A DNA stretch of 64,000 nucleotides from Candidatus Heimdallarchaeum aukensis (GTDB lineage Archaea > Asgardarchaeota > Heimdallarchaeia > Heimdallarchaeales > Heimdallarchaeaceae), in the NCBI GenBank assembly GCA_021513695.1, contig CP084166.1, positions 128,001-192,000 on the forward strand, in the 5' to 3' direction. Positions 3,188-35,719 of this stretch are shown piece by piece. Below the pieces are notes generated by a model. It was given only the letters and a program-made list of their open reading frames with translations. It did not search any database and was not told the origin of the DNA. Each line of letters starts with the position of its first letter. The first letter of the stretch is position 1. Both the position numbers and the translations under genes were made by a program.

Positions 3188-3259
3188 ACATAAAAATCTT
3201 TATTCTTCAATGTCTTACTAATATTCTTAAATTCTTTTATTAAATAAATAATAAATAAT

Positions 3260-6200
3260 TTGCATATATTTATTAATGTCTGTTTAAAATTCACCTTTAT
3301 GAGTATAAAAAGCAAAAAAATTTTTTTGTCTTTTATTATTATTATGTTTATTACTTTAACAATAAATAGTGTAAAAGCTGAAGAGCAAGCAGCTCCTATT
3401 TTATATACGAAGTATTCTTCTTACACCAATATAGTTGAGTCAGTTTTTGACGAGAATAATCAAATGCATATTTTTCTCGGTCGTTCAGATGAATTTAATT
3501 ATAAAATCTTACATATCTTTAATGGAGAAGCGATACTCATTGATGCTGGTGTAAATAACATAGAAAGATTTTTCAAAGCAAAAATCTTCCCTGGAGGAGT
3601 TGCATTATTCTATTTAGATCACGATATTACAAAAGGAGATACATTATACTATTATTATTATTTCATAAATAACGGTTCACATGGCCTCAAGGTAATAACA
3701 AAATCAGGATTAGCATCTAATTATAAAATCAATATATTTCAGGATAACTCCAGATTTACAATTATTACTTCGTATAGTATTTCCTATTATACAAGTGCAA
3801 TAAAAAGCTTTAACTGCAGTTTTAGCGGAGAAATTTTAGACTCTGAAAGTTATGATGTTGAAGTCTCAATTTACAAGATAAAAGGATTCGTCTTTCAGAA
3901 TGAAAAAATATTCTTTTATTTTTACAAAGATGTTTATAACGCTAGTGCTTACCTCTCTTTTCTCTATGTTCAAGGGATAAACGAAAATGGACATATTTTC
4001 AATTCGAGCGTAATTGAATATCCTAATAGTTATTCAGAAACAATTATAACGCAAGGAATCAAAAAAGATTTTTATATCCAAACTATACAAGATGGTCAAA
4101 TTTTTTATTATTCTTTTAATGAAAATGAGACTTTTAGTTTCAGTGACTATAATTCTGCAGATTTTTATATTTACTATTATAACGAATATTCTATCGAGTA
4201 CACAGGTAATTGGATAAACACGACTTTCATAGAGTATGAATACATGTATTATAGTGACTTCTCTTATTCTTCAACTATTAACATTTTAGCTATCGTTACT
4301 TCATATAATTCAGAACAAATGTTGTTTGCAAAATTTGAAAAAACTATAACTTTTCAAGAAAGCTTTTTCCAATACTCAGTAGACATTGCTCTCGATGGTC
4401 CTTATTATTATATGTTTATTGCCACTAAAAGTACTGAAAAAATCCACTTTAATGAAACTGAAGTTTTAGGATTATATGTTCTCACAGATGATCCTAATTT
4501 TGTTCCACCTAAAGAACCAATATACTATGAAATCAAGCATATCTCCAATTTTACCTATTTCATGAAAAATTATTGGTGGACCCTTTTAATCGGTTTCGGT
4601 TTCATTGGTGGAATGTACGGTATTTTCCACAAGAGGATTAATAAGTCAATTCGCAAAATGAAAAAATTCCTGTTAAGACCTGTTGTGGACAATGTTTCTA
4701 CTGCTAAACTAATTTTAATCAACATTTGGCTATTTTTCTTTAATACTTATAGTTTAGTTCTTTCTTTGTGGAGAGTTAATAAAAAAAGACTAATAATAAA
4801 CATTCTTGGTCTTTCAATTCTTGCGTTTGTTCTGATAAACACTTCAGTACTTTATAATTCAGAACAGGCAACTGTTCTTCAGAAATATTTTGACAACCAT
4901 GACTTTGGTTCTAATTATGATACTTCTGTAGATTTTACAAAGACATTTATTGAACAATCAAAAACCGCTGAAAATATTTCCTTAATTAATGAAAATTATA
5001 CTTTATTAGCTGCAGAAGATATAATGAAATCTTTGAAACAAAAAGCTCCTACTTTAGCTTCCTTAATAGTTGATTATCAACTAACCAGTTTAATTACTAT
5101 CACAGGTTCAAACGTTACTTACGGAAATGAAGATATTCAATATTATTCAATAAACTCAAGCTATAATTTTGTTTTACAATCACTACTAGTTAATGGTACT
5201 TTGCCTAATAAAAAAGGAGAAGTAATTGTTTCTAGTAGTGTTGCTGAATATTATGACTTTCAAGTGGGTGAAGTAATACAATTTCAAGCAGTAAGCTATA
5301 AAGGTGCTTTCCTAAATTATGATGTAGTCAACCTAACTGTTTCTGGAATTTTTTCTAGTATTGGTTACAATACTTTGCGACAACTATGCGCAGATAATGA
5401 TCTACCATTTGATCCTGTTAGATATCTTACCTCTAACATGTTTTCAGCTATCGCTTTTAACAAATACTTCTTAAAAAATCTAGAAAATATCTCTTTAGGA
5501 CAACTAACCTTGTACGGAGATTTAGAGTTTATTTATGACTTTTCTTCGCTTGATCTAGAATCCTTTGAAAAACTAGTTGAAGAATATGAGTATTTAACTG
5601 AAAATCCTACTCAATACTTTAAATTTGATCCCAATGGTACCTGGTCATTAAGTTACGAGTTACGATATGTTATAATATATTTCCAATATGACCTAATAAT
5701 CATGCGGTTTTTAATCTATTTACTAACAATACCTATAGTCTTCTTAGCTTTATTTTTATTAAGTGAAGTTAACTCTATCTTTGCTTCAAGTTTTAAACAA
5801 GAGATAGAAATATTACAATCCCAAGGATTATCTGTTGGAAGAATAACTTTCATTTATTCTTCAATGAAATTCGGAGAGTCAGTTGTTGGAACAGTATTTG
5901 GACTTCTTGGAACATTTATATTTACACCAATTCTTTTAAAAGTTGATAAATTTCTACAATTTACGAACCCAATTTATCATTTTACTTTAAAGGGTAGCTT
6001 ATCTACAATTTTCATAACCTTTTTTGCTTTAATCATAGCTTCTCTCCCTCGAATTATTAGATTGGCAAAACAATCTGAAAAGAAACAAAAAGAACCAAGA
6101 AGATTTGTAACTCTAATAAAACGATTAAGAATACATTACTTTTTAGTCGTTATTTTTGGCGGAATTATTGCTTTCGGGGGATATTATTTAGCTGCTATTT

Positions 6201-19291: not shown

Positions 19292-20254
19292 TCATTTTTC
19301 TTCTTCATCATCATTTAACAAGCTACTGAAGGCTGCTCTTAATTCATTTTGAAGTGATTCTTTCATTTGCTTTGTAGATTTTTTAGGAGTAGCTGGTGTA
19401 GGCTCTGATACTGGGCTTACTTCATCTGATTCTTCCATTCGTTGAGATCTTCTTTGTTGAGCAGCTTTAACTTCTGAAAGTAAAGCTTGTTGTGGAGAAA
19501 GAGGTCTTGATGCTTGTGCAGCTTGTTCTCTCTCTTTTTTATGAGCATCAGGATCAACTTTCTTTAATTTTGCTTTTGCTTCCAGAATTGCTGAAGCTGT
19601 TGGTCCACCTAATGGTCCCACACCTCCCCCACCCATAGGTCCTGGGCCAGGAGCTGGTGATTGTTGCACTGGAGCTTTTTGTAATTTTGCTTTTGCTTCC
19701 AGAATTGCTGAAGCTGTTGGTCCACCTAATGGTCCCACACCTCCCCCACCCATAGGTCCTGGGCTAGGTGCTGGTGATTGTTGCACTGGAGCTTTTTGTA
19801 AAGATTTGGCAGCATTAGCTATCTCGCTAGCAAATCCTGGAGAACCTGGCCCTGCTCCTAGATTAGGAGCTGGTGCAGGAGCTCCACTTAAATTTGGTGT
19901 TGGAGCTGGTCCCCCTAGATTAGGCGCAGAAGTCGCTCCACCCCCTATATTTGGCGCTGGAGCTGGTCCAGAACTCAATTTAGGTGCAGAAGGTATCGAG
20001 GGACTTGGAGTACTTCCACCTATACTTGGAGCACTAGGCATTCCCATTCCTCCTCCAGGTGCTCCACCTAATTTATTCTCCAAAGCTGTTATTCGCGCAT
20101 CTAATTCGTTAATAGCATCTTCAATTCTTTCTGTAGATTTGATCATAATACTTCCAAAGTTTTCAAGAAGTCTAGTTAATTTTGCAATCGCAGTTTTCGT
20201 AGGGGAAGAACCTTCAGATAATAAATTGTCTAGGTACTCATCAATTGACATCAA
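19292..20254 (-). CDS. low-complexity Pro/Gly/Ala-rich protein with an N-terminal coiled coil and two 39-aa repeats
   Basis: After an N-terminal helix there is a long PAPAP/GGP tract. Two repeats follow: AKAKLQKAPVQQSPAP..GPMGGGGVGPLGGPTASAILE. The C-terminal tail is acidic. Confidence 0.45.
   Translation of the reverse strand: MMSIDEYLDNLLSEGSSPTKTAIAKLTRLLENFGSIMIKSTERIEDAINELDARITALENKLGGAPGGGMGMPSAPSIGGSTPSPSIPSAPKLSSGPAPAPNIGGGATSAPNLGGPAPTPNLSGAPAPAPNLGAGPGSPGFASEIANAAKSLQKAPVQQSPAPSPGPMGGGGVGPLGGPTASAILEAKAKLQKAPVQQSPAPGPGPMGGGGVGPLGGPTASAILEAKAKLKKVDPDAHKKEREQAAQASRPLSPQQALLSEVKAAQQRRSQRMEESDEVSPVSEPTPATPKKSTKQMKESLQNELRAAFSSLLNDDEEEK
19566..19799 (+). repeat. 117-bp direct repeat, 2 units, inside the Pro/Gly-rich gene
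   Basis: aattttgcttttgcttccagaattgctgaagctgttggtccacctaatggtcccacacctcccccacccataggtcctggg... occurs twice in tandem, with 2-3 mismatches near the 3' end of the unit. Confidence 0.85.
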
Positions 20255-23031: not shown

Positions 23032-24774
23032 TTATTTGTCATTGATTTTTACTTGTAAGAAATACTCAATTATTTCTTTCAAATCTTTCTTTGTTATACG
23101 TTTATCTGACTGAATTCCACCTTTTTCTAAGACTATGTGTCTCATTCCTGGTCTTAACAAACTAAGATCATGCGAGCAAATAATTACTGTTGTTTGTAAT
23201 TTTTCTGCAACATCCATTAATACATCAATTATGGCTCTTGCCAAATCACTATCTAAATTAGCTGTTGGTTCATCTCCTATTAGAATAGGCGTTTTTCTTG
23301 TTAATGCAAGTGATAAGGAAGCTCGTTGTTTTTCTCCAGCAGAAAGTTCATCAGGATAAGCTTCTAACTTATGTTTTATTTGACATTCCTCAACCATATT
23401 TAGAGAGTACTCTTCATCATAGTCTAATTTAGAAAACAGATAAGGGACAAGAAGATTATCTTTAACTGTAACAGGTTCAAAGAGGTTATTATGCTGAGTG
23501 ATATAAGCAATGTTCTTTAATCTAAACATTGATGTTTCATATTCATCTTTATCATGAAGTGAAACATTATTGATAATTATTTCTCCTTTATCTGCTTTTA
23601 CAAGTCCTGTAATGCAATTAAAAAGGGTAGTTTTTCCTACTCCACTGGGCCCAGTAATCATTACGAAATCTCCTTTTTTAACTTCTAAGTTAATGTTTTT
23701 TATTACTTGATTATAACCTGCTGGAGAATGATATCCTTTGGAAACTCCTTTTAATTGCAAAATATTTTCTCTACTCTCTATGAAGTTGAATTTTCTGCTA
23801 ATAATTTTTTCAATTTCTTCATAAGAAATTTCTCGAGATTCTTTAATCGCTTCGTCAACTGGTTTATTCAAAATCTTGTATATTTCTTCTCTATTTACTA
23901 TATCAGGATTCCAAAATAAACCAAGAGATCCAGCAGGATGAGCGTCAAATTCTACTACATCATAAAGCTTTGTTTTCATCTTTATTTGATCAGGTATTCT
24001 AAGAAGGCTATTTTTATCTAAGTAAGCCCGATTATTTGTAGAAGAACTTGTCATAAATTCAAGTTTATCTTTTTCCATATCTTGACTTACTCCTACTAAT
24101 CTCCCATCTCTAATGATAAAGCTATGTTTGAATACATTTCTAAAGCGGATATCGTGAGTCACAACAACAATAGTTTTACCCGTGTTCTCGTTAATATCTT
24201 TTATAGTATTAATTACTTCTTTAGTATGCTCAGTATCTAATTGACCTGTAGGCTCGTCAAGAAGTAGAAATTTAGGATTTTTAGCTAAGGCTGCACCTAA
24301 AGATAAACGCATAGCCTCTCCACCAGAAATGCGAGAAACGAGATTATTTCGCACATGATATAAGTTTAACAGTTCTAAAATTTCCTTGACTTCTCTTCTG
24401 GCTTGCTCTCTTGGAATGTAAAATAATTTTTTGTGTATCATAAGATTCTTTTCAACAGAGAGATTTGAGAATAAGTTATCGCTAATATTTTGATTGATCA
24501 ACCCAATGTATCTGAATCTGAACTCTCTTAGTTGTTTTTGAGACATTTTTTCTAAATGATGGTTGTCAATAATGACTGATCCTCCAGTAATATCTTCTAA
24601 GCCAGATAAAATCTTGATTAATGTGGTTTTTCCTGCTCCAGAAGGACCAACTATACTTACAAGATCACCTTTTTCTACATATAAATCTAATCCTCTTAAA
24701 GCAGCAACTTTATAATCAGAATGAGGGTCGAAATAAATTTTAAATAAATCAATACATTGTATCATTTTTATCAC
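23032..24774 (-). CDS. ABC transporter ATP-binding protein with two tandem NBDs (diverged paralog of 7576..9333)
   Basis: Walker A GPSGAGKTTL and GPSGVGKTTL; signatures ISGGEAMRLSLGAALA and LSAGEKQRASLSLALT. The domain order matches the first copy. Confidence 0.85.
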   Translation of the reverse strand: MIKMIQCIDLFKIYFDPHSDYKVAALRGLDLYVEKGDLVSIVGPSGAGKTTLIKILSGLEDITGGSVIIDNHHLEKMSQKQLREFRFRYIGLINQNISDNLFSNLSVEKNLMIHKKLFYIPREQARREVKEILELLNLYHVRNNLVSRISGGEAMRLSLGAALAKNPKFLLLDEPTGQLDTEHTKEVINTIKDINENTGKTIVVVTHDIRFRNVFKHSFIIRDGRLVGVSQDMEKDKLEFMTSSSTNNRAYLDKNSLLRIPDQIKMKTKLYDVVEFDAHPAGSLGLFWNPDIVNREEIYKILNKPVDEAIKESREISYEEIEKIISRKFNFIESRENILQLKGVSKGYHSPAGYNQVIKNINLEVKKGDFVMITGPSGVGKTTLFNCITGLVKADKGEIIINNVSLHDKDEYETSMFRLKNIAYITQHNNLFEPVTVKDNLLVPYLFSKLDYDEEYSLNMVEECQIKHKLEAYPDELSAGEKQRASLSLALTRKTPILIGDEPTANLDSDLARAIIDVLMDVAEKLQTTVIICSHDLSLLRPGMRHIVLEKGGIQSDKRITKKDLKEIIEYFLQVKINDK

Positions 24775-27700
24775 TCCAAATTCATAGGTTGATATCTAGC
24801 AAATTGCATTTTCATTGTCATGTAGAATATAGAGAAAAACATAACAGGAATAACTAGAAAAATTATCACCGCAATAACTGGTGGAAACTGAATAGGATTA
24901 GGCAATATCTCTTGCCTTAGGCTTCTTAACACTCTTCGTATAATTTCAGTTATTGTAAAACCTACTGCTGTACCACTGATTATTCCAGGAAGAATTCCAA
25001 TCATGAATAATTCAAAGGAACTCATTTGAATTATAAGTTTGTTAGGTATACCCATCTTCTTAAGAATGTCATGCTTACCCATTCTTCTTTGCAATATCTT
25101 AAGAGGATTACTCATACTTGTAAATACAATAGAGATTATGCAAATTAATAATGAAAAAACAAATATTGAAACTATCGAAGCATAAAAGGGAAGATTGGTA
25201 CGGTAAATTTCTTGTTCTTCTTCAACTATGTTAATGATTTCTAGATTGTATTTCTCTTCTAAACTTGAAGAAAATTGAACTATATCCGTTTTTTCTTCAA
25301 CATTTATTAATAATCTATAACCAAATACTCCAAAAACGGTTAAACTCTCTTCTATTTTCTCATAATTGCTCTCTGTTAGAACAATCATAGGAGTTCCTCC
25401 CGATTCTCGTGGACCATAAGGATAGATTATGGGGAAATAGTCAAACTCATCTATTATCTTCACTTCTACGTCATCGAATGAGTATTTCATTTCGCTAATA
25501 TCAAAGAAAAACTTGAAGTTGCTAGAAACAATTATCTCTTTATCGTTATCCAGTTGAGGAATAATATCATCCCAATTTTTGTAAAATCTTTCTGAAGGTT
25601 TATACGCTGTATTATAGAAATCCGAAGCTTTTTGAATCACTAAAAGATTTAACTGTCTTCCTCCAAACATTGCGTCAACTTGAGAAACGTTACATATGCC
25701 GATTACTTCGGGAAGAATTTTAATTTCATCACTGATACTGGAATTAACGTTATTGTAATTGCTTATATACATATCAGCTCCTGCCATAAAGTAAGAATCT
25801 TTTATTATCCCATTCTGCATTGTTAGAGGAGCAGCTATTGCAGGAACAGCAATTCCTACCAAAAGTAAATAGGTCAAGAAAATATCATTAAACAATGAAA
25901 GATCTGTTTTTACTTCAACTAATGAGAAAGTGAATATATTCTTCTTAATTTTCCACAAAGTTTTGCTTAAAACTGCCATAATAAAAGAGTGAAGATCTTT
26001 TAAAATTAGTCCTAAACCGAATAAAGATATCATTACTCCAATTCCAATAATATACACGAAAATGTTTATCAATTGGTTATCTGAAGAAGAAAGATTTTCG
26101 CTGAAAGTTAGATATAGTTTTAGTCCTCCGTAAATTATTCCTCCTCCAACAGCAATAATAATGAAGTTGCCGATTTTCACCTTTTTAAGAAAAGAAACAA
26201 ATTTGTTATAATCTCTTATTTGCTCCTTCTTTATTTTTGCCATTCTTATTGTTAAAGGTAAAGTAATAATTATTAAACCAAAGAACGAAATTGTGAAAAT
26301 TAAAGGAAGATTCTTTAACGAAGGCATTGTAGAACTTAGATTGAAAGAGACAAATCTATCTAATTTTAATAAAATGGGAATAATCAGTATTGCTTCTCCT
26401 AAACCTAAAAAGGTTGCAATAAGTGATTCTACAAATTTCATTACTGTGTTCAGATAAACTATTTTTCCAGTTGACAACCCTTTGGAACGGAGAATTTTAA
26501 TTTCTTCATCAAAACTTGTAGCAAATAAGGCATTTGTTTCAAAAATCAAGAATAGTGCAAGGTAAAGGACAGGTATTGATAATAAAACAATTAGAAATTG
26601 AGTAGAGGAATAGGAAGGAACTAAACTTTGCAATACTAGTTTTAATTCAGTTGAAATAACCCAAGAACCACCTAAATCAAATTTTACAGGATGATCGTAA
26701 CTTGGTTGTAAAATGTCAAAATCATTTATTAGTTTTCCAATATTTTTAGAATTAACTAAAGAAAAATCATAGAAAAATTGAACTATACCATCAAATTTCA
26801 GATGTTGAACTGGCATAGTTTTTAAACTTGACAGATAAAAATCATTGAAAGTTATTGCACCGATGTATTGTGAAATCATTTCTATGAGATCATATGATAA
26901 TCCATAATCTCTACTCATCTTAAATAATGAAGGTTCTGTTGGTTTTTCGTAAATCCCTACAATAGTCATGTTCACTCTTTCTTTTAAACCTCCAACAGAG
27001 ACATCTGCACCAACAAAGACAATAGTGTCGTTTATTGTTTTATTGAAAGCTGTCGCTGTAGTTTGATCGATTATAACTTCATTGATTTTATCAGGTAACC
27101 TACCTGAAACTAGAATTCTTCCCAAAATATCCTTATAATTAGTAGATAAGGAATAATATGATTCTACGCTCTGAACTGTACTCTCAGTATCCTTCTTAAA
27201 TAGAATTCGCATTTGCATTGAATAATCAGAATCAATAATTATATCCTTCAAAACTTCAGTTTTAAAAGCGATAGTTGAAAGAATCTCGTTCATAACAGCA
27301 GAAGAAAAATTCTCGTAAAAAGGTGAGTATTCATTTACTCTCCCCCATCTCGCGGAAAGAACATTATGCATTCTCGAAAACGTAGCTGAAGCTTTTTCAT
27401 CTTCTTCTAAATGAGCATCTTCTAAATATTGTTGTATCATCATGTTTTGTTTATATGAAAAGAGTGAAGAAGAAGAGAAAACAATCATTGCCAAAATTGA
27501 TAAGCCTAGTATTGTTATTATAGCTCTCTTTTTGTTTGATCTCCATAAATCGAAAGGAAGACTCAATGAACTTACAATAAAAACCCATAGATTGAGAAAT
27601 ACTAAAACAAATTTACTTTTTCCAGTTTTTATAGGTCTAAATAAAAACCTAAATAGTTTTTTTCCTTGATTTACTATTTTTTTGTAAAATATGGCTATAA

Positions 27701-29195
27701 ATAGTAAGAGAATTGAGATAGCTATTGTAAATTCAATCCAATGTATTCTAAAAACATATTGAAAGAAGTTTACTAAAGTTAGATCGTAAATAACAGGTCT
27801 TATAATACTGTTGAAAGATAAATTACTATTTGAATAAATTAAAACAGAAAAGACATTAGGTTCTACTATAACTTTGTTTTCTAGTTGAGTATCATGAAAT
27901 CTCTGTGTTCTACTAACTAAAAAAGTAGTAGGAGATTGAAAATTGATATGAGTCGAGTCGAAAACCGTAATGTTTGAAGTGAAAGGAATATCAATAAATT
28001 GTTGAGTAATATTTTTTCCATTATATCTTAAAATAGTAAATTCAGTAATTAAATCAGCCTTAGAATTACTTGAATTAAGAGGTAAGTGGGGATTAGGGTT
28101 GATTAAGAATGTTATTGACGAATCAAAAGAGTAGTGATACAAGTCATCATATGAATACATTCCCAATTGAAATTCACTAAAGTTTTCAAAAGAAAGACTT
28201 TCGTTCAATTTAAAATTATGAGTATAGAATGTTGATCCTTTAATTAGAGCCAAGTTTAGTGTAGTTTGATTAAATACCGATAAATAAACATCATAATCAG
28301 TATTGAAAAGAAGATAGTTACTTAAATAAGGGTCATCGTTTATGATATATATTCCAACTAGCCTTGTTGGGAAAAACATATACTTGTACAATGCAACTAA
28401 TTTTCCATCAACAAGTAGCAATGTTTGAATGCCATTATATTCTAAATCTGTAAACCAATTTTCAGTGCTTGAAGTTCCATTTAGAAAAACTGTTAATTTT
28501 TTAAATTTAGTCTTTGGGTGCTCATCCATTGCCGATTCAAACATTGGTTCTGCAAACAGCAAATAGAAAGAGTTTTCTATAAACTGAACATTATAGATAA
28601 AATAATTTCCAAAAAAACTTGAATGGTAAATCAAGAAATTACTTTTGTTTTGTTCTGATTCCCAAACATACATTTCAATATTGAATTGCCCAAAGTTTCC
28701 ATGATATGAATAGAACAATACTATTTTGTTATCAATTCTAAAGGTGTCAAAAATTGTTCCTGGACTTAAATCTGTTTTAATCTTTGATATATTTCCTTCA
28801 AACAAATGAAAGATAGTGAAGGATTGATTTTCTAATTCCATTTTTATGAATAAGTGTAATCTTTCTTGAGTGTCTAACACCGCTCTTGTTTCTAAATCTA
28901 CTATTGTTTCATAAGCTTGAAAATAACCTATAACCTCTTCTTTAACTTCTGGATTTTCAGTTATATCAGCACTTATTAGCAAAGAATTATAATTTAAACT
29001 TAATATAGACGCTATTAAAATAAACACGAAATATTTTTTTTCCATACCAATCTCCCATCGGATATGCCTTTTTTTGAACACTTTAAAATTTTCCTCTGTA
29101 AAAATATTTTTTAAATGAATAAATACTTCAAGAAAAGAATTTATATATTGCAAGTTCTTGTTAAGCAAAATGTCCTCAAAAACCTCTAAAGACAC
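24771..29195 (-). CDS. single-chain FtsX/MacB-type permease (diverged paralog of 3260..7579)
   Basis: Same architecture as the first copy. The probable true start is at 29045 (MEKKYFVFILIASILSLNYNSLLISADI, a signal peptide). The ORF-track start at 29195 overlaps the divergent MFS gene. DLWRSNKKRAIITILGLSILAMIVF is the FtsX N-terminal motif. Confidence 0.6.
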   Translation of the reverse strand: MSLEVFEDILLNKNLQYINSFLEVFIHLKNIFTEENFKVFKKRHIRWEIGMEKKYFVFILIASILSLNYNSLLISADITENPEVKEEVIGYFQAYETIVDLETRAVLDTQERLHLFIKMELENQSFTIFHLFEGNISKIKTDLSPGTIFDTFRIDNKIVLFYSYHGNFGQFNIEMYVWESEQNKSNFLIYHSSFFGNYFIYNVQFIENSFYLLFAEPMFESAMDEHPKTKFKKLTVFLNGTSSTENWFTDLEYNGIQTLLLVDGKLVALYKYMFFPTRLVGIYIINDDPYLSNYLLFNTDYDVYLSVFNQTTLNLALIKGSTFYTHNFKLNESLSFENFSEFQLGMYSYDDLYHYSFDSSITFLINPNPHLPLNSSNSKADLITEFTILRYNGKNITQQFIDIPFTSNITVFDSTHINFQSPTTFLVSRTQRFHDTQLENKVIVEPNVFSVLIYSNSNLSFNSIIRPVIYDLTLVNFFQYVFRIHWIEFTIAISILLLFIAIFYKKIVNQGKKLFRFLFRPIKTGKSKFVLVFLNLWVFIVSSLSLPFDLWRSNKKRAIITILGLSILAMIVFSSSSLFSYKQNMMIQQYLEDAHLEEDEKASATFSRMHNVLSARWGRVNEYSPFYENFSSAVMNEILSTIAFKTEVLKDIIIDSDYSMQMRILFKKDTESTVQSVESYYSLSTNYKDILGRILVSGRLPDKINEVIIDQTTATAFNKTINDTIVFVGADVSVGGLKERVNMTIVGIYEKPTEPSLFKMSRDYGLSYDLIEMISQYIGAITFNDFYLSSLKTMPVQHLKFDGIVQFFYDFSLVNSKNIGKLINDFDILQPSYDHPVKFDLGGSWVISTELKLVLQSLVPSYSSTQFLIVLLSIPVLYLALFLIFETNALFATSFDEEIKILRSKGLSTGKIVYLNTVMKFVESLIATFLGLGEAILIIPILLKLDRFVSFNLSSTMPSLKNLPLIFTISFFGLIIITLPLTIRMAKIKKEQIRDYNKFVSFLKKVKIGNFIIIAVGGGIIYGGLKLYLTFSENLSSSDNQLINIFVYIIGIGVMISLFGLGLILKDLHSFIMAVLSKTLWKIKKNIFTFSLVEVKTDLSLFNDIFLTYLLLVGIAVPAIAAPLTMQNGIIKDSYFMAGADMYISNYNNVNSSISDEIKILPEVIGICNVSQVDAMFGGRQLNLLVIQKASDFYNTAYKPSERFYKNWDDIIPQLDNDKEIIVSSNFKFFFDISEMKYSFDDVEVKIIDEFDYFPIIYPYGPRESGGTPMIVLTESNYEKIEESLTVFGVFGYRLLINVEEKTDIVQFSSSLEEKYNLEIINIVEEEQEIYRTNLPFYASIVSIFVFSLLICIISIVFTSMSNPLKILQRRMGKHDILKKMGIPNKLIIQMSSFELFMIGILPGIISGTAVGFTITEIIRRVLRSLRQEILPNPIQFPPVIAVIIFLVIPVMFFSIFYMTMKMQFARYQPMNLE

Positions 29196-30533: not shown

Positions 30534-31379
30534 TTATTTACTAAAATAAGCCGATTCTTCATTATTTATTTCTAATAGAATCTTAGCCATTTTTGGGAAT
30601 TCTGTAGGAGCTATTAAGCTAGCATTCTGACACCCAGTATTTACTAATATATAGACAAACAAATCAGAATAGTGCGCAATAACCTCTATATTCCCATTGG
30701 TAAAAGCTATTTTGTTTAAGTTTTCTTTTATTAAGATGGAAAATTTGATTTCGTTTAAAATTTTTAAAAGGTAGGTATGATCTGAATAAAAAATATTTGA
30801 AGTTGTTTTATGAAATAATAACTCATTTGTATATCTATCTAAAATAAAAAGATTATAGGGAGTATTTTCTACATATTTATCTACTCTATTGAAAAAATCT
30901 AGTTTCTTTGCTGAGTCAATGTTTAGATTGTAAATTCTTTCTTCTTCTCTTATTTCATAATCTTTTAGCACATCAAGAATCTGCATGAAGGGTTCTTTAA
31001 AGAGTTTTAAAAAGAAAGTACCATCTCCAAATTCACGATTAATTATCTCTTCATTTTCATAATCACTAAAAGTACTTGAAACTAGAAATCTAAAATTTTC
31101 CACTTCTTTTAAAAACACTCTTTCTCCTTTTTCGAATTCAATTCTTGCTACAAGAAAGAAACGATTATTAAAAAAAGGAATGTAAATCAGTCTTTCATCT
31201 CCCGCAATATCTAGGTAATTAATGGTTTTTCCAGTTAACTCAACTGAGAAGGATTGTAAAGCACTCATTAGAGCACCTATTAAATCAGGGTCGATAGGAA
31301 CAGATTTTCTTATTATCGCGTGATTTATTAGAATACCATCATTTGAAACTAACCACATTTCTTTAATCATTTTTTTCAC
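30534..31379 (-). CDS. tandem roadblock/LC7 (longin-like) domain protein
   Basis: The N-terminal MWLVSNDGILINHAII...IGALMSALQSFSVEL...LIYIPFFNNRFFLVARI fits the roadblock alpha-beta-beta-alpha-beta pattern. A second similar unit lies in the C-terminal half. The gene starts 1 bp after the GTPase gene's stop. Confidence 0.45.
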   Translation of the reverse strand: MKKMIKEMWLVSNDGILINHAIIRKSVPIDPDLIGALMSALQSFSVELTGKTINYLDIAGDERLIYIPFFNNRFFLVARIEFEKGERVFLKEVENFRFLVSSTFSDYENEEIINREFGDGTFFLKLFKEPFMQILDVLKDYEIREEERIYNLNIDSAKKLDFFNRVDKYVENTPYNLFILDRYTNELLFHKTTSNIFYSDHTYLLKILNEIKFSILIKENLNKIAFTNGNIEVIAHYSDLFVYILVNTGCQNASLIAPTEFPKMAKILLEINNEESAYFSK

Positions 31380-32174
31380 TTATAGTTTTTTTATATATTC
31401 GATTATAGAATTAAAATTATTATTAGTTAGAGAAGAGTATACAATCAGATTTTTCTGTAAGAACGAAATTTCTTCCAGCTTTTTGCTTATTCTTTCAAAG
31501 TTTTTAGTTGTATTTTTAATATCACTTTTTGTTAAAATAAATGACATTCTAAGTTTATTCTCATCTTCAATTTTCTTCAGAATTGCAAAAATTCTTTCAT
31601 ACAAAGATTCTTTGTAGATAAAGCCATAGTCAAGAACAAAAAAGATCGCATCAAAGTTATTTTCGACTTTTTCATTTAGATAATATGAAATCAAATCCAT
31701 ATTTCCGCCAATTTCTGTAATTTTTAATTTTTTTCCAAGGAAATAAAATTGAGATGTGGAAATTCCGATATTATGAAGTTTAGTTCCCAAAAAAGCATTG
31801 TAATTTAATCTGTGAATAATACTCGATTTTCCACATTTACTAAAACCAATTAGTAGAATGTTGAGTTGTTTATTTTCCTTTCTTGAGATTGAATATTGTA
31901 CTTTGAATTGATTTTTTTGTCCAAAAGTAATTTTGGTAGAATATTGACCTAGAATTGAGCCTGTTGATTCAATTATTTTTCCAAAACCATCAAAAATGCT
32001 TATACCAAGAATAAATTCTTCAGGAATTTTTTCTAGGAGTTGAAGGAGAAGTGATTTGATAGATATTTGATTTTGTAAATAAAATGACAATTTGTTATGG
32101 AATTCATTATTTTGAACTATTTGTCTTAGCAACTGTGTGGCAATTGTATCTTCTTTCACGTTTATTAAGTTCAT
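31380..32174 (-). CDS. Ras-superfamily small GTPase with an N-terminal roadblock-like extension of about 100 aa
   Basis: G1 LLIGFSKCGKSSI (GxxxxGKS); G3-like ITEIGGN; G4 ILTKSD (N/TKxD). The N-terminal ILGISIFDGFGKIIESTG region resembles a roadblock core. Confidence 0.55.
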   Translation of the reverse strand: MNLINVKEDTIATQLLRQIVQNNEFHNKLSFYLQNQISIKSLLLQLLEKIPEEFILGISIFDGFGKIIESTGSILGQYSTKITFGQKNQFKVQYSISRKENKQLNILLIGFSKCGKSSIIHRLNYNAFLGTKLHNIGISTSQFYFLGKKLKITEIGGNMDLISYYLNEKVENNFDAIFFVLDYGFIYKESLYERIFAILKKIEDENKLRMSFILTKSDIKNTTKNFERISKKLEEISFLQKNLIVYSSLTNNNFNSIIEYIKKL

Positions 32175-32193
32175 TTAACCTTAATTAACTTTT

Positions 32194-33183
32194 TTAATAA
32201 CCCATGTCCAAATTTACTTTATTAAGTGGTTCTTCTCCTCTCACGAACCTATTGATATTTTCAACTAGTTTAATTACACGATCGTGCCATTTTTTATCAG
32301 TTTGCCAAGCGCGATGAGCAGACATAATTATGTTATCTAATTCCTGAAATGGATACTTAGAAGGGTAACAAGGAACAGGTTCTTGTTTCTCTCCTCTCCT
32401 TTTTGGATAATTATACCAGACATCTATTGCTGCGCCTTTGATTTTTTTATTTTTAAGGCTGAGATATAGTTCTTCTTCATCTATTGTTTTTCCTCTTCCT
32501 ACATTTACAATAATAGCTTCTTTTTTCATAGCGTTAAACTCTTCTTTTCCTAAGAAGTTTCTTGTTTCTTCAGTAAGTGGAAGTGAATTAATGATAAAAT
32601 CAGCTTGTTTGATCGCTTCAATTCTCTTTTCTGGAGTATAAACTGTTACATTTTGCATTTCTGCGTTCTTTCTTCTTTTTATCGCGATAAATTTCATGTC
32701 AAACGGTTTACAATACTCCATTACTTTTTTGCCTATATGTCCAAAGCCTAAAAATAATATTGTTTTATTTGTTAAACTTACAGAAGGATATTGGGTGTAA
32801 TCCCATAGTCCTTTTTCTCTTAATAATTTGTCATTTGCTAACAACTCTTTAGAAGCTGCTAAAAGTAAAGAAAAAGCATATTCTGCAATTGTGTCTGAAT
32901 GTTCATGACTATTACAGAGAATAATATTTTTTTCTTTGTAAATTTTTAAGTTGTGTCTATCTACACCAGTTCCAAATGTTTGATGAAACTTCAATTTATT
33001 TGTACTTTCTAGCTCTTCTTTTGATAATCTTCCACCTAAAACAATATCTACTTCTTGTAAGATTTTTTTTCTTTCATCTTCTGTAAGTTCATCTCTAAAA
33101 AATACTTCTACTCTCTCGTCTATTCTTTCTCTAATTTCTTCTTTTTCTTGTTCATTAGCGTTAATTAAAAAGAGTGCTTTCAT
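32194..33183 (-). CDS. D-isomer-specific 2-hydroxyacid dehydrogenase family protein
   Basis: ILFLGFGHIGKKV is the NAD-binding GxGxxG motif. Catalytic-domain blocks match the PGDH/GyaR-like family. Confidence 0.7.
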   Translation of the reverse strand: MKALFLINANEQEKEEIRERIDERVEVFFRDELTEDERKKILQEVDIVLGGRLSKEELESTNKLKFHQTFGTGVDRHNLKIYKEKNIILCNSHEHSDTIAEYAFSLLLAASKELLANDKLLREKGLWDYTQYPSVSLTNKTILFLGFGHIGKKVMEYCKPFDMKFIAIKRRKNAEMQNVTVYTPEKRIEAIKQADFIINSLPLTEETRNFLGKEEFNAMKKEAIIVNVGRGKTIDEEELYLSLKNKKIKGAAIDVWYNYPKRRGEKQEPVPCYPSKYPFQELDNIIMSAHRAWQTDKKWHDRVIKLVENINRFVRGEEPLNKVNLDMGY

Positions 33184-33292: not shown

Positions 33293-34951
33293 ATGACTGA
33301 AAATTCGTCCAAAGATGAGAAAACTGCACTGATAAAACAACTTCGCTTAAGTTCTCTCCCCGTACAAAGGGAAAAGGCTGCAATATTACTAGCTAACTTT
33401 CCTGATTCTGAAGTGCTAGATGCTCTTCTAAATGCACAAATTCGTGATCCCAACCCAAAAGTTCGTGATGCAGCAGCTGCTTCTTTAGCGAGACTAATTT
33501 CATATTCAGAGGACGATGATTCAGAAATTTTGCCTGAAGATAAAAAAAAGCGATATAATCAAATTTTCAATCTAACAAAAGAAATAGAAATAATAAGACA
33601 AGGTACAACACGATTCAGATTTAACAAAAAAGATACACTTGAGATCACGCAACTTTTTAATCAGATAAAATCTGATAGATACCTCCCCAAACAGACTAAC
33701 GTTAGAAGTTTGATTAATTCTATTTTATTACTTCCAATAGATAATATTGATTTGGGAAGAGATGTAGCAATAACATTAACTGAAATACTAAAACGTAGTT
33801 TCGACGAAGAAGAAAGGTTGATAGCAATAGGTAGTTTAAGTAATATTGTAACAACAATTGAATCGTATAATCCCCTATTTGGAATTGCAGAAGCGTTTTT
33901 AATGATTTATAAGACATCAGACGATTCAGAGATGAGAATGATATCTTTTAGATGTCTCGAATTATTAATCTCAAAAACAAAATCAATGAATAAACTCAAT
34001 TACCATGTAGATAATCTTGCAAAACTTCTAACCTTCTCTTATGATAAGCGAATTCGAGAAATAGCTATATCTGCATATCCAGAGTTAGTATTTCTTTACA
34101 ACGAAAAATCTACTTTTTTAGTTGATCACATAATCAAGATTGTAAGAGCAACTTATGAAGATAGACTAAGAGAATTAGGTCTTAAAGCTCTAGAAGCACT
34201 GATTTTAAGAAAAAGGGTAACAGAAGAGAATTTTGAAAGCATTATTAAGATGCTAAAATCTCATCATTCTAAAAATATTCGAATTAGAGCAATTGAGTTA
34301 TTTCTGTCTATAATTTTACAAGCTCACGAAGATATGATAGATGATGCTTTAGCAAGTTTGTTTATTATTATGCAGAAAACAAAAGATGAAGATATATGTT
34401 ATACTGCAATACAGAATATTGAGCATTATTCATTGATAGATGTTCCTAAAGAAAATGTTCAAAATGTTTTTAGATTAATTGAAATAATTGCCACAACCTC
34501 TCCTCATCCACTAATCGCTCTAAGAGCATACAATCTTGTTTCGAAGATCATTTCAAATAAACCTAATCTCATAACAACAGACTTCATAGTCGAAATAGCT
34601 CATAATATGTTGTCTAGTAAAGATCTAGGTGTAACTGAACAGATTCTAGTATCTTTCTGTGAGTTAATCTACAATAGAGAGCTAAATCCTCTAGATATTA
34701 CACAAAATATTAGTAACATATTATTTTTATCTGATGATTCAGATATTTTAGAGGGATTAGTAACCATATTTCAGGAATTACTTGTTTCTGATAAAAGTAT
34801 TAATCCTAAAGATGTACTTGATAAATTGATAGTTATTATTTCAGAATCTAATGGAAAGCATGATGTGTTTAGAAGATTAGCTAATTTAGATGTAGATATT
34901 TTCAAAAAAAGTTCTAATAAAGAAAAATCAGAGAAGAAAAAGACCGAATAG
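33293..34951 (+). CDS. HEAT/PBS-lyase-like repeat protein
   Basis: Repeated helical pairs such as EKAAILLANFPDSEVLDALLNAQIRDPNPKVRDAAAASL are present. All-alpha; 552 aa. Confidence 0.5.
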   Translation: MTENSSKDEKTALIKQLRLSSLPVQREKAAILLANFPDSEVLDALLNAQIRDPNPKVRDAAAASLARLISYSEDDDSEILPEDKKKRYNQIFNLTKEIEIIRQGTTRFRFNKKDTLEITQLFNQIKSDRYLPKQTNVRSLINSILLLPIDNIDLGRDVAITLTEILKRSFDEEERLIAIGSLSNIVTTIESYNPLFGIAEAFLMIYKTSDDSEMRMISFRCLELLISKTKSMNKLNYHVDNLAKLLTFSYDKRIREIAISAYPELVFLYNEKSTFLVDHIIKIVRATYEDRLRELGLKALEALILRKRVTEENFESIIKMLKSHHSKNIRIRAIELFLSIILQAHEDMIDDALASLFIIMQKTKDEDICYTAIQNIEHYSLIDVPKENVQNVFRLIEIIATTSPHPLIALRAYNLVSKIISNKPNLITTDFIVEIAHNMLSSKDLGVTEQILVSFCELIYNRELNPLDITQNISNILFLSDDSDILEGLVTIFQELLVSDKSINPKDVLDKLIVIISESNGKHDVFRRLANLDVDIFKKSSNKEKSEKKKTE

Positions 34952-35719
34952 TAATTGAGAAAAAATAAACATTGATATTATTATAGCAAGTGTATAATTC
35001 TCAAATTTGAATTCTTTAATTACCTCTTTAAACATCAAGGGAGAAAAAATAGAAAAAAGCAAAAAGAATGTCCCAGGATAATATAGATAGATTAAGAAAT
35101 CATTGTAAGATAAGGGAATGAAGAAAGCTACAAAAATAAAAAATGTAGCAAATAATAAATCTATAACTATATATGCTATAAGGGGTTTTCTGAAATTCTT
35201 ACATTTGTCTTGTTGGAAAGAAATAATTGTTAAAGGAAGAATAAAGAAGAATATATCTGTCATAAAGTCTGTTGTTTGAAGTATTTTTAGGGATAGATCT
35301 GAAAGCTGAAGTTCTGTAACTAAAGGCCAACCAACAAAAGTTAAGCTAAAAGGCCAAAAAACAGCCACTTTTACTAAATAAAACATGTCTAAAATGACAT
35401 GTGTAATCATCCCCACTCCAATTCCAATACTTATACTCCTAAAATCTATTTTACTTATTTTTTTATCAGGAATATACTTTTTTGTAATAAATCCTAGAAG
35501 GTAAATGAGTAAAGAAAGTACAGTAATAAAAAACAAGCTATGAGTAAATGTTCTATGTAAAATTGTAGCTTTTTCTCCAATGAAAAGATAAGCTAAAGCT
35601 GCAATAAATATATCAATATCAGGGAATATAGCTCCAAAAGCAGCTGATACTTTGAAACCTTCTTTTTTTCCAAAACTTGCTAAAACTAAACCTGAAAGAA
35701 GATGAACTCCTCCTTGCAT
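34928..35719 (-). CDS. membrane-bound metal-dependent hydrolase family protein (YdjM/DUF457-like)
   Basis: The N-terminus HLLSGLV...HRTFTHSLFF matches the YdjM-type His motifs. Multiple TM helices. Confidence 0.45.
   Translation of the reverse strand: MQGGVHLLSGLVLASFGKKEGFKVSAAFGAIFPDIDIFIAALAYLFIGEKATILHRTFTHSLFFITVLSLLIYLLGFITKKYIPDKKISKIDFRSISIGIGVGMITHVILDMFYLVKVAVFWPFSLTFVGWPLVTELQLSDLSLKILQTTDFMTDIFFFILPLTIISFQQDKCKNFRKPLIAYIVIDLLFATFFIFVAFFIPLSYNDFLIYLYYPGTFFLLFSIFSPLMFKEVIKEFKFENYTLAIIISMFIFSQLLFGLFLL

Follow-up and report, generated by a model that had tools for sequence, protein, structure and literature searches.

A divergent Arf-family GTPase and a tandem longin/roadblock protein encoded by a conserved gene pair in Candidatus Heimdallarchaeum aukensis

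Asgard genomes encode dozens of small guanosine triphosphatases (GTPases) and many roadblock and longin proteins, and the match between a regulator and its GTPase is rarely clear. Tran et al. noted that this matching is hampered by the lack of operons (PMC10933270). The same question is raised by a locus in a window of 64,000 nucleotides (nt), the whole stretch of DNA analysed here (contig CP084166.1, positions 128,001 to 192,000), from Candidatus Heimdallarchaeum aukensis, an Asgard archaeon with a published circular genome (PMC8813620). Two open reading frames (ORFs) lie head-to-tail on the minus strand at 30534..32174 of the window: do they encode a GTPase and its own regulator? The sequence-only reading of this locus had described a Ras-superfamily GTPase with a roadblock-like N-terminal segment, followed by a protein of two roadblock/longin-like units. 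The explanation favoured here, with belief and doubt about evenly balanced, is that a divergent Arf-family GTPase with its own N-terminal domain and a tandem longin/roadblock regulator form a cognate pair.

The GTPase gene occupies 31380..32174 (minus strand), with an ORF of 264 amino acids (aa) from ATG 32174, and the tandem longin/roadblock gene occupies 30534..31379 (minus strand), with 281 aa from GTG 31379. The two products are 100% identical to H. aukensis proteins, in agreement with the Asgard setting proposed earlier: the upstream one to UJG40970.1, labelled at NCBI as 'hypothetical protein K9W45_00580', and the downstream one to UJG40969.1, labelled as 'roadblock/LC7 domain-containing protein'. 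The annotated and conserved starts lie further inside, at GTG 32159 for the GTPase (259 aa) and at ATG 31370 for the partner (278 aa). The codon at ATG 32174 is ATA in H. endolithica, where GTG 32159 is retained, and MIKE[IM]W is the N-terminus of all partner homologues, the H. aukensis protein opening with MIKEMW. Because the homologues all begin in this way, the intergenic spacer is likely 9 nt, where the mechanical ORF call had given 0 nt, and the downstream start placed earlier at 1 bp after the upstream stop gives way to ATG 31370. Residue numbers below follow the 264-aa ORF for the GTPase and the 278-aa protein for the partner.

Both are real, constrained protein genes under purifying selection. 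The local G+C content is 27–28%, and the chance of an open frame this long at the regional base composition is about 1e-11. Compared with the H. endolithica orthologues, the ratio of nonsynonymous to synonymous substitution rates (dN/dS) is 0.136 for the GTPase (0.22 in its N-terminal part, 0.10 in the G domain) and 0.05 for the partner. A possible archaeal B recognition element (BRE)/TATA element, AAAAAG-TTAATTAA, is read at 32181..32193 (minus strand); the centre of its TATA-like octamer lies about 25 nt upstream of GTG 32159, and the octamer is conserved in H. endolithica. Within this very AT-rich region, the element could be the promoter of a leaderless bicistronic mRNA. The favoured explanation includes one expression unit that encodes the cognate pair, a part for which the chances also appear about equal.

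The linkage of the two genes is conserved. They adjoin on the same strand, 0–22 nt apart, in four genomes: H. aukensis (9-nt spacer), H. endolithica (adjacent, locus L003), a Heimdallarchaeaceae metagenome-assembled genome (locus L001; GTPase 44% and partner 59% identical) and a more distant uncultured archaeon (L002/L004; GTPase 30% and partner 41% identical). The flanks in L002 are different, with the pair located between a beta-eliminating lyase and a proline-rich protein, the H. aukensis orthologues of which lie 10 kb off within the window. Upstream of the pair, at a distance of 19 nt, lies a 2-hydroxyacid dehydrogenase gene (32194..33183). Both H. aukensis and L001 have this gene whole; only two decayed fragments of it remain in H. 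endolithica (L003 4471..5174; residues 1–94 and 298–329), next to an intact pair. Since the L002 neighbourhood differs and the H. endolithica dehydrogenase has decayed, the pair itself is the unit of conservation. A functional link to the dehydrogenase, fragmented in H. endolithica and absent from the L002 context, was considered and rejected. The distribution of the pair is narrow: metagenome scans with the GTPase alignment and with the partner alignment gave no additional loci, and the genome scan returned again only H. endolithica and the L002 contig. Just 11 proteins pass E 1e-3 in a search of 1.84 billion representatives for the GTPase family, and the partner has just four homologues in 5.8 billion proteins.

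The upstream gene encodes a Ras-superfamily GTPase, as was read from the sequence. Its G domain, of the Arf family, spans 31383..31874 (minus strand; residues 101–264), and the Pfam Arf profile (PF00025) matches residues 99–246 with 29 bits vs a cut-off of 22.3 (E 8.9e-7). The SRPRB profile remains just under its threshold (24.6 vs 25), Pfam Gtr1_RagA gives no match, and the NCBIfam search returned only a sub-threshold 'small_GTP' match. When a profile of seven family members was compared with the PDB, Arl1 ranked first (1.6e-27), with Arl3/Arl2/Arf1 at 1e-24 to 1e-21; the best 60 matches listed were all Arf/Arl except one engineered mini-Gq chain, and none began before profile position ~97. 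The best profile and fold matches of the GTPase are Arf/Arl, Rag, SR-beta and Sar1, and MglA is absent from the best 60 listed in both the PDB profile search and the fold search. Within the Ras superfamily, the GTPase sits on the Arf/Sar/SR-beta/Rag side. With this placement, it falls in the second largest class of Asgard GTPases, described by Tran et al. as 'Rag-like but also close to Arf' (PMC10933270). In the AlphaFold model (predicted local distance difference test, pLDDT, 81.6; predicted template modelling score, pTM, 0.79), helix 5 of the G domain is the last element of the chain (to residue 263 of 264), and there is no C-terminal roadblock. A hallmark of Arf proteins is the short N-terminal amphipathic helix, often with a myristoylated Gly2; in the model of this GTPase, a 100-residue domain stands instead of such a helix.

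The motifs of the G domain are of two kinds. Those for nucleotide binding are kept: G1, or the P-loop, GFSKCGKS (31824..31847, minus strand; residues 110–117) is a canonical GxxxxGK[ST] and is intact on alignment, and G4 TKSD (31521..31532, minus strand; residues 215–218), also canonical, retains the guanine-specificity Lys and Asp. G110, G115, K116, K216 and D218 are invariant across the family. The switch and catalytic residues are substituted, which the sequence-only reading overlooked. In the switch I segment HNIG (31764..31775, minus strand; residues 134–137), placed by hidden Markov model alignment to Arl1 and by the family alignment, Asn135 occupies the position of the Mg/gamma-phosphate-binding Thr of Arf/Arl (PT-IGF). 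In G3/switch II, EIGGN (31701..31715, minus strand; residues 154–158) replaces DxGGQ, so that Glu154 takes the place of the G3 Asp and Asn158 that of the catalytic Gln; all three assignments come from the alignments to Arl1 and to distant relatives. Two distant family members, P0009 and P0010, retain the switch I Thr, and P0009 also has DLGGQ, NKID and SAK. Since the Thr is kept in both and DLGGQ in P0009, the three substitutions arose within the Heimdallarchaeum branch. The protein is an example of an Arf-family G domain which keeps its nucleotide-binding motifs while all three catalytic/switch residues have changed. Because G1 and G4 are intact, the GTPase is predicted still to bind guanine nucleotide. 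With Asn for both the catalytic Gln and the switch I Thr, it would hydrolyse GTP poorly on its own, and its cycling would thus probably depend on partner proteins.

The downstream protein contains, according to its predicted structure, two units of the roadblock/longin fold, longin-like and then roadblock-like, which bears out the two units proposed earlier. Both folds consist of a five-strand sheet and a central helix; the longin has no N-terminal helix and ends in C-terminal helices, and the roadblock begins with an N-terminal helix. Domain 1 (31065..31370, minus strand; residues 1–102) is longin-like and has no N-terminal helix, being predicted by AlphaFold as strands 2–9 and 14–19, helix 28–46, strands 52–56, 59–66 and 71–78, and helix 83–102. 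It is followed by a helical linker (30933..31052, minus strand; residues 107–146), taken from the predicted secondary structure of a low-confidence region. Domain 2 (30540..30914, minus strand; residues 153–277) is roadblock-like, of the MglB/LAMTOR2 type, and predicted as helix 153–167, strands 173–178 and 184–188, helix 199–207, strands 220–224, 229–234 and 238–244, and helix 258–277, with an invariant FILDR motif (residues 175–179) at its strand 1/strand 2 hairpin. The secondary structure is clear in the model, which is of moderate quality (pLDDT 67.7, pTM 0.49) and was built from an alignment of four sequences. The nearest structures found by Foldseek are Mon1/Ccz1, TRAPP, the RagA C-terminal domain, LAMTOR2, MglB and Asgard roadblocks. 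The Robl_LC7 profile matches residues 5–49 of domain 1 over profile positions 15–56 only, with 19.6 bits (E 7.6e-4) vs a cut-off of 23, and gives no match on domain 2. Profiles of the partner domains gave nothing beyond chance-level matches among PDB sequences. A comparison of domain 1 with domain 2 by hhalign gave a probability of <1% despite the shared topology, with alignments that are too shallow.

What such a protein may do beside a GTPase is suggested by its relatives in fold. To our knowledge, all roadblock/longin systems characterised so far build a platform from a dimer of these domains, and the platform docks on a small GTPase at its switch face. This holds for MglB and MglA, Ragulator and Rag, Mon1-Ccz1 and Rab7, TRAPP and Rab1, and SRX and SR-beta. 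The orientation in which roadblock/longin dimers engage small GTPases is conserved, and they act mainly as guanine nucleotide exchange factors (GEFs) and occasionally as GTPase-activating proteins (GAPs) (PMC10933270). As these dimers are GTPase-binding platforms, the tandem protein is read as the cognate platform of the neighbouring GTPase. It could supply both halves of the platform in one chain, or dimerise into a larger one, and would bind the GTPase and control its nucleotide state. Its likeliest role would be that of an exchange factor and scaffold, because its nearest structural neighbours are GEFs and it lacks the GP motif by which longin GAPs are marked. The analysis shows that the two genes are real and stay linked, and shows their folds and the state of their motifs; binding between the two products, GEF activity and a cellular role such as membrane or cytoskeleton targeting are inferred.

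Several points weigh against this reading. The partner model, of moderate confidence, does not fix how the two domains are oriented towards each other, and its full-length Foldseek alignments reach only low template modelling scores (TM-scores) of 0.32–0.42. The likeness in fold cannot separate a GEF from a GAP, since MglB and the RagA C-terminal domain score almost as high as the GEFs. The altered catalytic residues would suit a GTPase that requires a GAP no less than one that requires a GEF, and the role of the N-terminal domain of the GTPase is left unexplained by the proposed pairing. Given the substituted residues, a GAP role or a non-cycling scaffold would be serious alternatives.

The first of these, in which the tandem protein is the GAP of the neighbouring GTPase and supplies or positions its missing catalytic residue, is unlikely but keeps the most weight among the rivals. 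Precedents are MglB for MglA and FLCN/GATOR1/C9orf72-SMCR8 for Rag/Arf. The best structural matches of the partner are, however, GEF subunits. Moreover, a GP motif that opens strand 2 next to an Arg finger is the mark of all known longin GAPs and of the related Asgard longins (PMC12290439). No such motif stands before strand 2 in the partner: the hairpin of domain 1 reads W-L-V-S-N-D-G-I, with D-G-I at this place, and that of domain 2 reads F-I-L-D-R-Y-T-N-E-L, without Gly-Pro.

The second alternative is somewhat less probable again. Here, the GTPase would be a hydrolysis-dead or non-switching pseudo-GTPase, held with its partner in a constitutive structural complex, which serves as an anchoring scaffold and not as a cycling switch, much as SR-beta sits with the SRX domain of SR-alpha, or the Rag C-terminal domains with Ragulator. 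The perfectly kept G1 and G4 and the low dN/dS of the G domain argue, however, that nucleotide binding matters, and Asn and Glu, as conservative substitutes, may preserve partial function.

The third alternative concerns the N-terminal 100 residues of the GTPase (31875..32174, minus strand), and its chances are a little poorer still. This segment had been called roadblock-like, and as a degenerate roadblock it could heterodimerise with a roadblock of the downstream protein, in the way the Rag C-terminal domains pair with each other and with LAMTOR2/3. A canonical roadblock runs helix-strand-strand-helix-strand-strand-strand, with five strands and a central helix of roughly 20 residues. The segment does resemble the first half of this order, with a helix, a strand (ILGISIFD), a G and a strand (KIIESTG), and roadblock-GTPase fusions are known in Prometheoarchaeum MK-D1 (PMC10933270), so that one here would have a precedent and be no novelty. 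Nevertheless, AlphaFold predicts helices 11–21, 23–34 and 40–49 followed by strands 54–61, 67–71, 78–84 and 90–98, with a pLDDT of 81–89 over residues 20–100. Strands 2 and 3 are only 6 residues apart, which leaves no central helix between them, and the strands number four, not five. Robl_LC7 (PF03259) gave no match at E<=10 in the N-terminal segments of seven family members, nor did any other Pfam profile match; the profile of the domain found only chance-level matches among PDB sequences, with no roadblock protein at E<=10. In the fold search with the whole GTPase model, the G domain dominates all 60 matches listed. The exhaustive search also brought up no roadblock-GTPase proteins from other Asgards. 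Comparison by hhalign of the domain with each partner domain gave probabilities of <1%, from alignments too shallow to tell either way.

The segment is, all the same, a conserved one. Five clusters among the 1.84 billion representatives cover it in alignment, with identity as low as 24%. Within it, G65 and G72 are invariant. As far as the model can be followed, the N-terminal 100 residues are a conserved, family-specific alpha/beta domain and not a canonical roadblock; the roadblock assignment is unsupported rather than disproved. The distant family member P0009 carries the same N-terminal domain, and 19 nt downstream of it lies a 164-aa protein which reads, by sequence pattern only, as strand-strand-helix-strand-strand-strand-helix. 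Compared with the partner family by hhalign, this neighbour gave a probability of <1%, again from alignments that are too shallow.

That the two genes are mere neighbours with unrelated functions is highly improbable: the coupling is drawn solely from adjacency and from what such folds do elsewhere, and small GTPase genes of MK-D1 as a rule do not share operons with roadblock/longin genes (Tran et al., PMC10933270), but the close same-strand spacing persists across 30–41% identity and a changed neighbourhood.

The surroundings of the pair hold further genes. In L002, 2 nt upstream of the pair (3195..4181, the same as L004), there is a second Arf-like GTPase of 328 aa, which has canonical motifs and a Pfam Arf match of 2.4e-36, together with a C-terminal extension of roughly 150 residues whose sequence pattern looks longin/roadblock-like. 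It has no orthologue in the window, and no second GTPase was found there. The four genes of the L002 row are GTPase-extension, N-domain-GTPase, longin-roadblock and proline-rich protein. The last of these (L002 5922..6824), directly downstream of the longin-roadblock gene, is the orthologue of a 320-aa protein at 19292..20254 (minus strand) of the window. Its N-terminal helix is conserved, with a sub-threshold Pfam match to the WASH-complex subunit CCDC53 (E 5e-4, 20.9 bits vs 24.6), and next comes a long stretch rich in Pro, Gly and Ala, in which PNL[GS] is repeated. Three motifs (...ILEAKAKLQKAP / ...AKLKKVDPD) are like the WH2 actin-binding motif (LKKV), and after them the protein has a conserved C-terminal helix with an acidic tail. 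To judge by these features, the layout recalls actin regulators of the WASP/WAVE type, and no Asgard reports of such WASP/WAVE-like proteins were found in the searchable literature. On the improbable multi-longin reading given below, the L002 row with its WH2-like protein would be a hint that the GTPase module is connected to actin regulation.

On the other side of the dehydrogenase, the window holds a 552-aa HEAT-repeat protein (33293..34951, plus strand), whose gene is transcribed away from the dehydrogenase/GTPase block, and then a YdjM-like membrane protein (34928..35719, minus strand). This arrangement is also present in L001, and the 552-aa ORF in L003; neither holds for L002. At 23032..29195 (minus strand), a protein of 580 aa that consists of two ABC ATPase halves, with two GPSG[AV]GKTT P-loops, is encoded with a 4-nt overlap onto the start of a multi-pass membrane protein of 1474 aa. 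Read from their translations, the two may be a very large ABC-type permease pair.

How, then, does the pair relate to the systems already described? GTPase-roadblock operons have been known since the work on MglA/MglB, which occur in bacteria and archaea and often share one operon. As in MglA/MglB, the roadblock gene adjoins the GTPase gene here; the differences are the Arf/Arl-like G domain, the tandem of longin and roadblock in place of the single homodimerising roadblock of MglB, and the extra N-terminal domain of the GTPase. The architecture that defines the Rag proteins is a G domain followed by a C-terminal roadblock. Unlike Rag/Ragulator and the Asgard Rag-like LokiRagO (PDB 8yl2), the present system has neither a C-terminal roadblock nor separate LAMTOR-like small subunits. 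Rag proteins also form obligate heterodimers of two GTPases; the window shows no other GTPase, and in L002 one precedes the pair. The likeness to MglA/MglB and Rag/Ragulator drawn by the sequence-only reading is reasonable for a GTPase and a roadblock platform in a conserved pair, but does not extend to the G domain, which is Arf/Arl-like, or to the Rag C-terminal roadblock, which is missing. SR-beta/SRX differs as well, as SRPRB is sub-threshold and neither a transmembrane anchor nor a context of the signal recognition particle (SRP) receptor is present.

The tri-longin Rab GEFs (Mon1-Ccz1, BLOC-3 HPS1-HPS4 and CPLANE Fuzzy-Inturned) have three such domains vs the two found here, and their clients are Rabs, not Arf-like proteins. 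They share 9–15% identity with the partner at TM-scores of 0.32–0.42, a likeness at the level of fold only, taken from a model of moderate confidence, with no sequence match in the PDB at E<=10. Alignment to them is, moreover, what one would expect of any tandem with this fold. That the pair is a surviving Asgard single-chain multi-longin exchange factor beside its client Arf-family GTPase is an improbable idea, about as doubtful as the degenerate roadblock or slightly more so. If true, the eukaryotic Mon1-Ccz1, BLOC-3 and CPLANE GEFs, or Rag-Ragulator, would have in this pair a relative among prokaryotes, or at the least a working model.

Asgard GTPases fused to a roadblock or a longin on either side are already known (Tran et al. 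2024, PMC10933270), and the solved Asgard structures in the comparison set include Roadblock-Longin proteins (PDB 8yqg/8yqk, 7yh1, 7f8m). No sequence-level relationship of the pair to these fusions or proteins was detected in the protein and PDB searches. In contrast to the fusions, the regulator here has a gene of its own within a conserved pair, an arrangement that is unusual in MK-D1 (PMC10933270); compared with the Asgard Roadblock-Longin proteins, the order is reversed to longin and then roadblock, and the extra domain of the GTPase is no recognisable roadblock. The current picture of Asgard GTPase signalling is unchanged, with one narrow, uncharacterised family added to it. Coming from the Heimdallarchaeaceae, a lineage close to eukaryotes, the pair is a ready-made candidate cognate pair for biochemistry. 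It is a lineage-specific version of the pairing of a GTPase with a regulator already known from bacteria, other Asgard archaea and eukaryotes, distinguished by the separate conserved regulator gene, the longin-then-roadblock order, the altered catalytic residues, an N-terminal domain without known relatives and a very narrow distribution.

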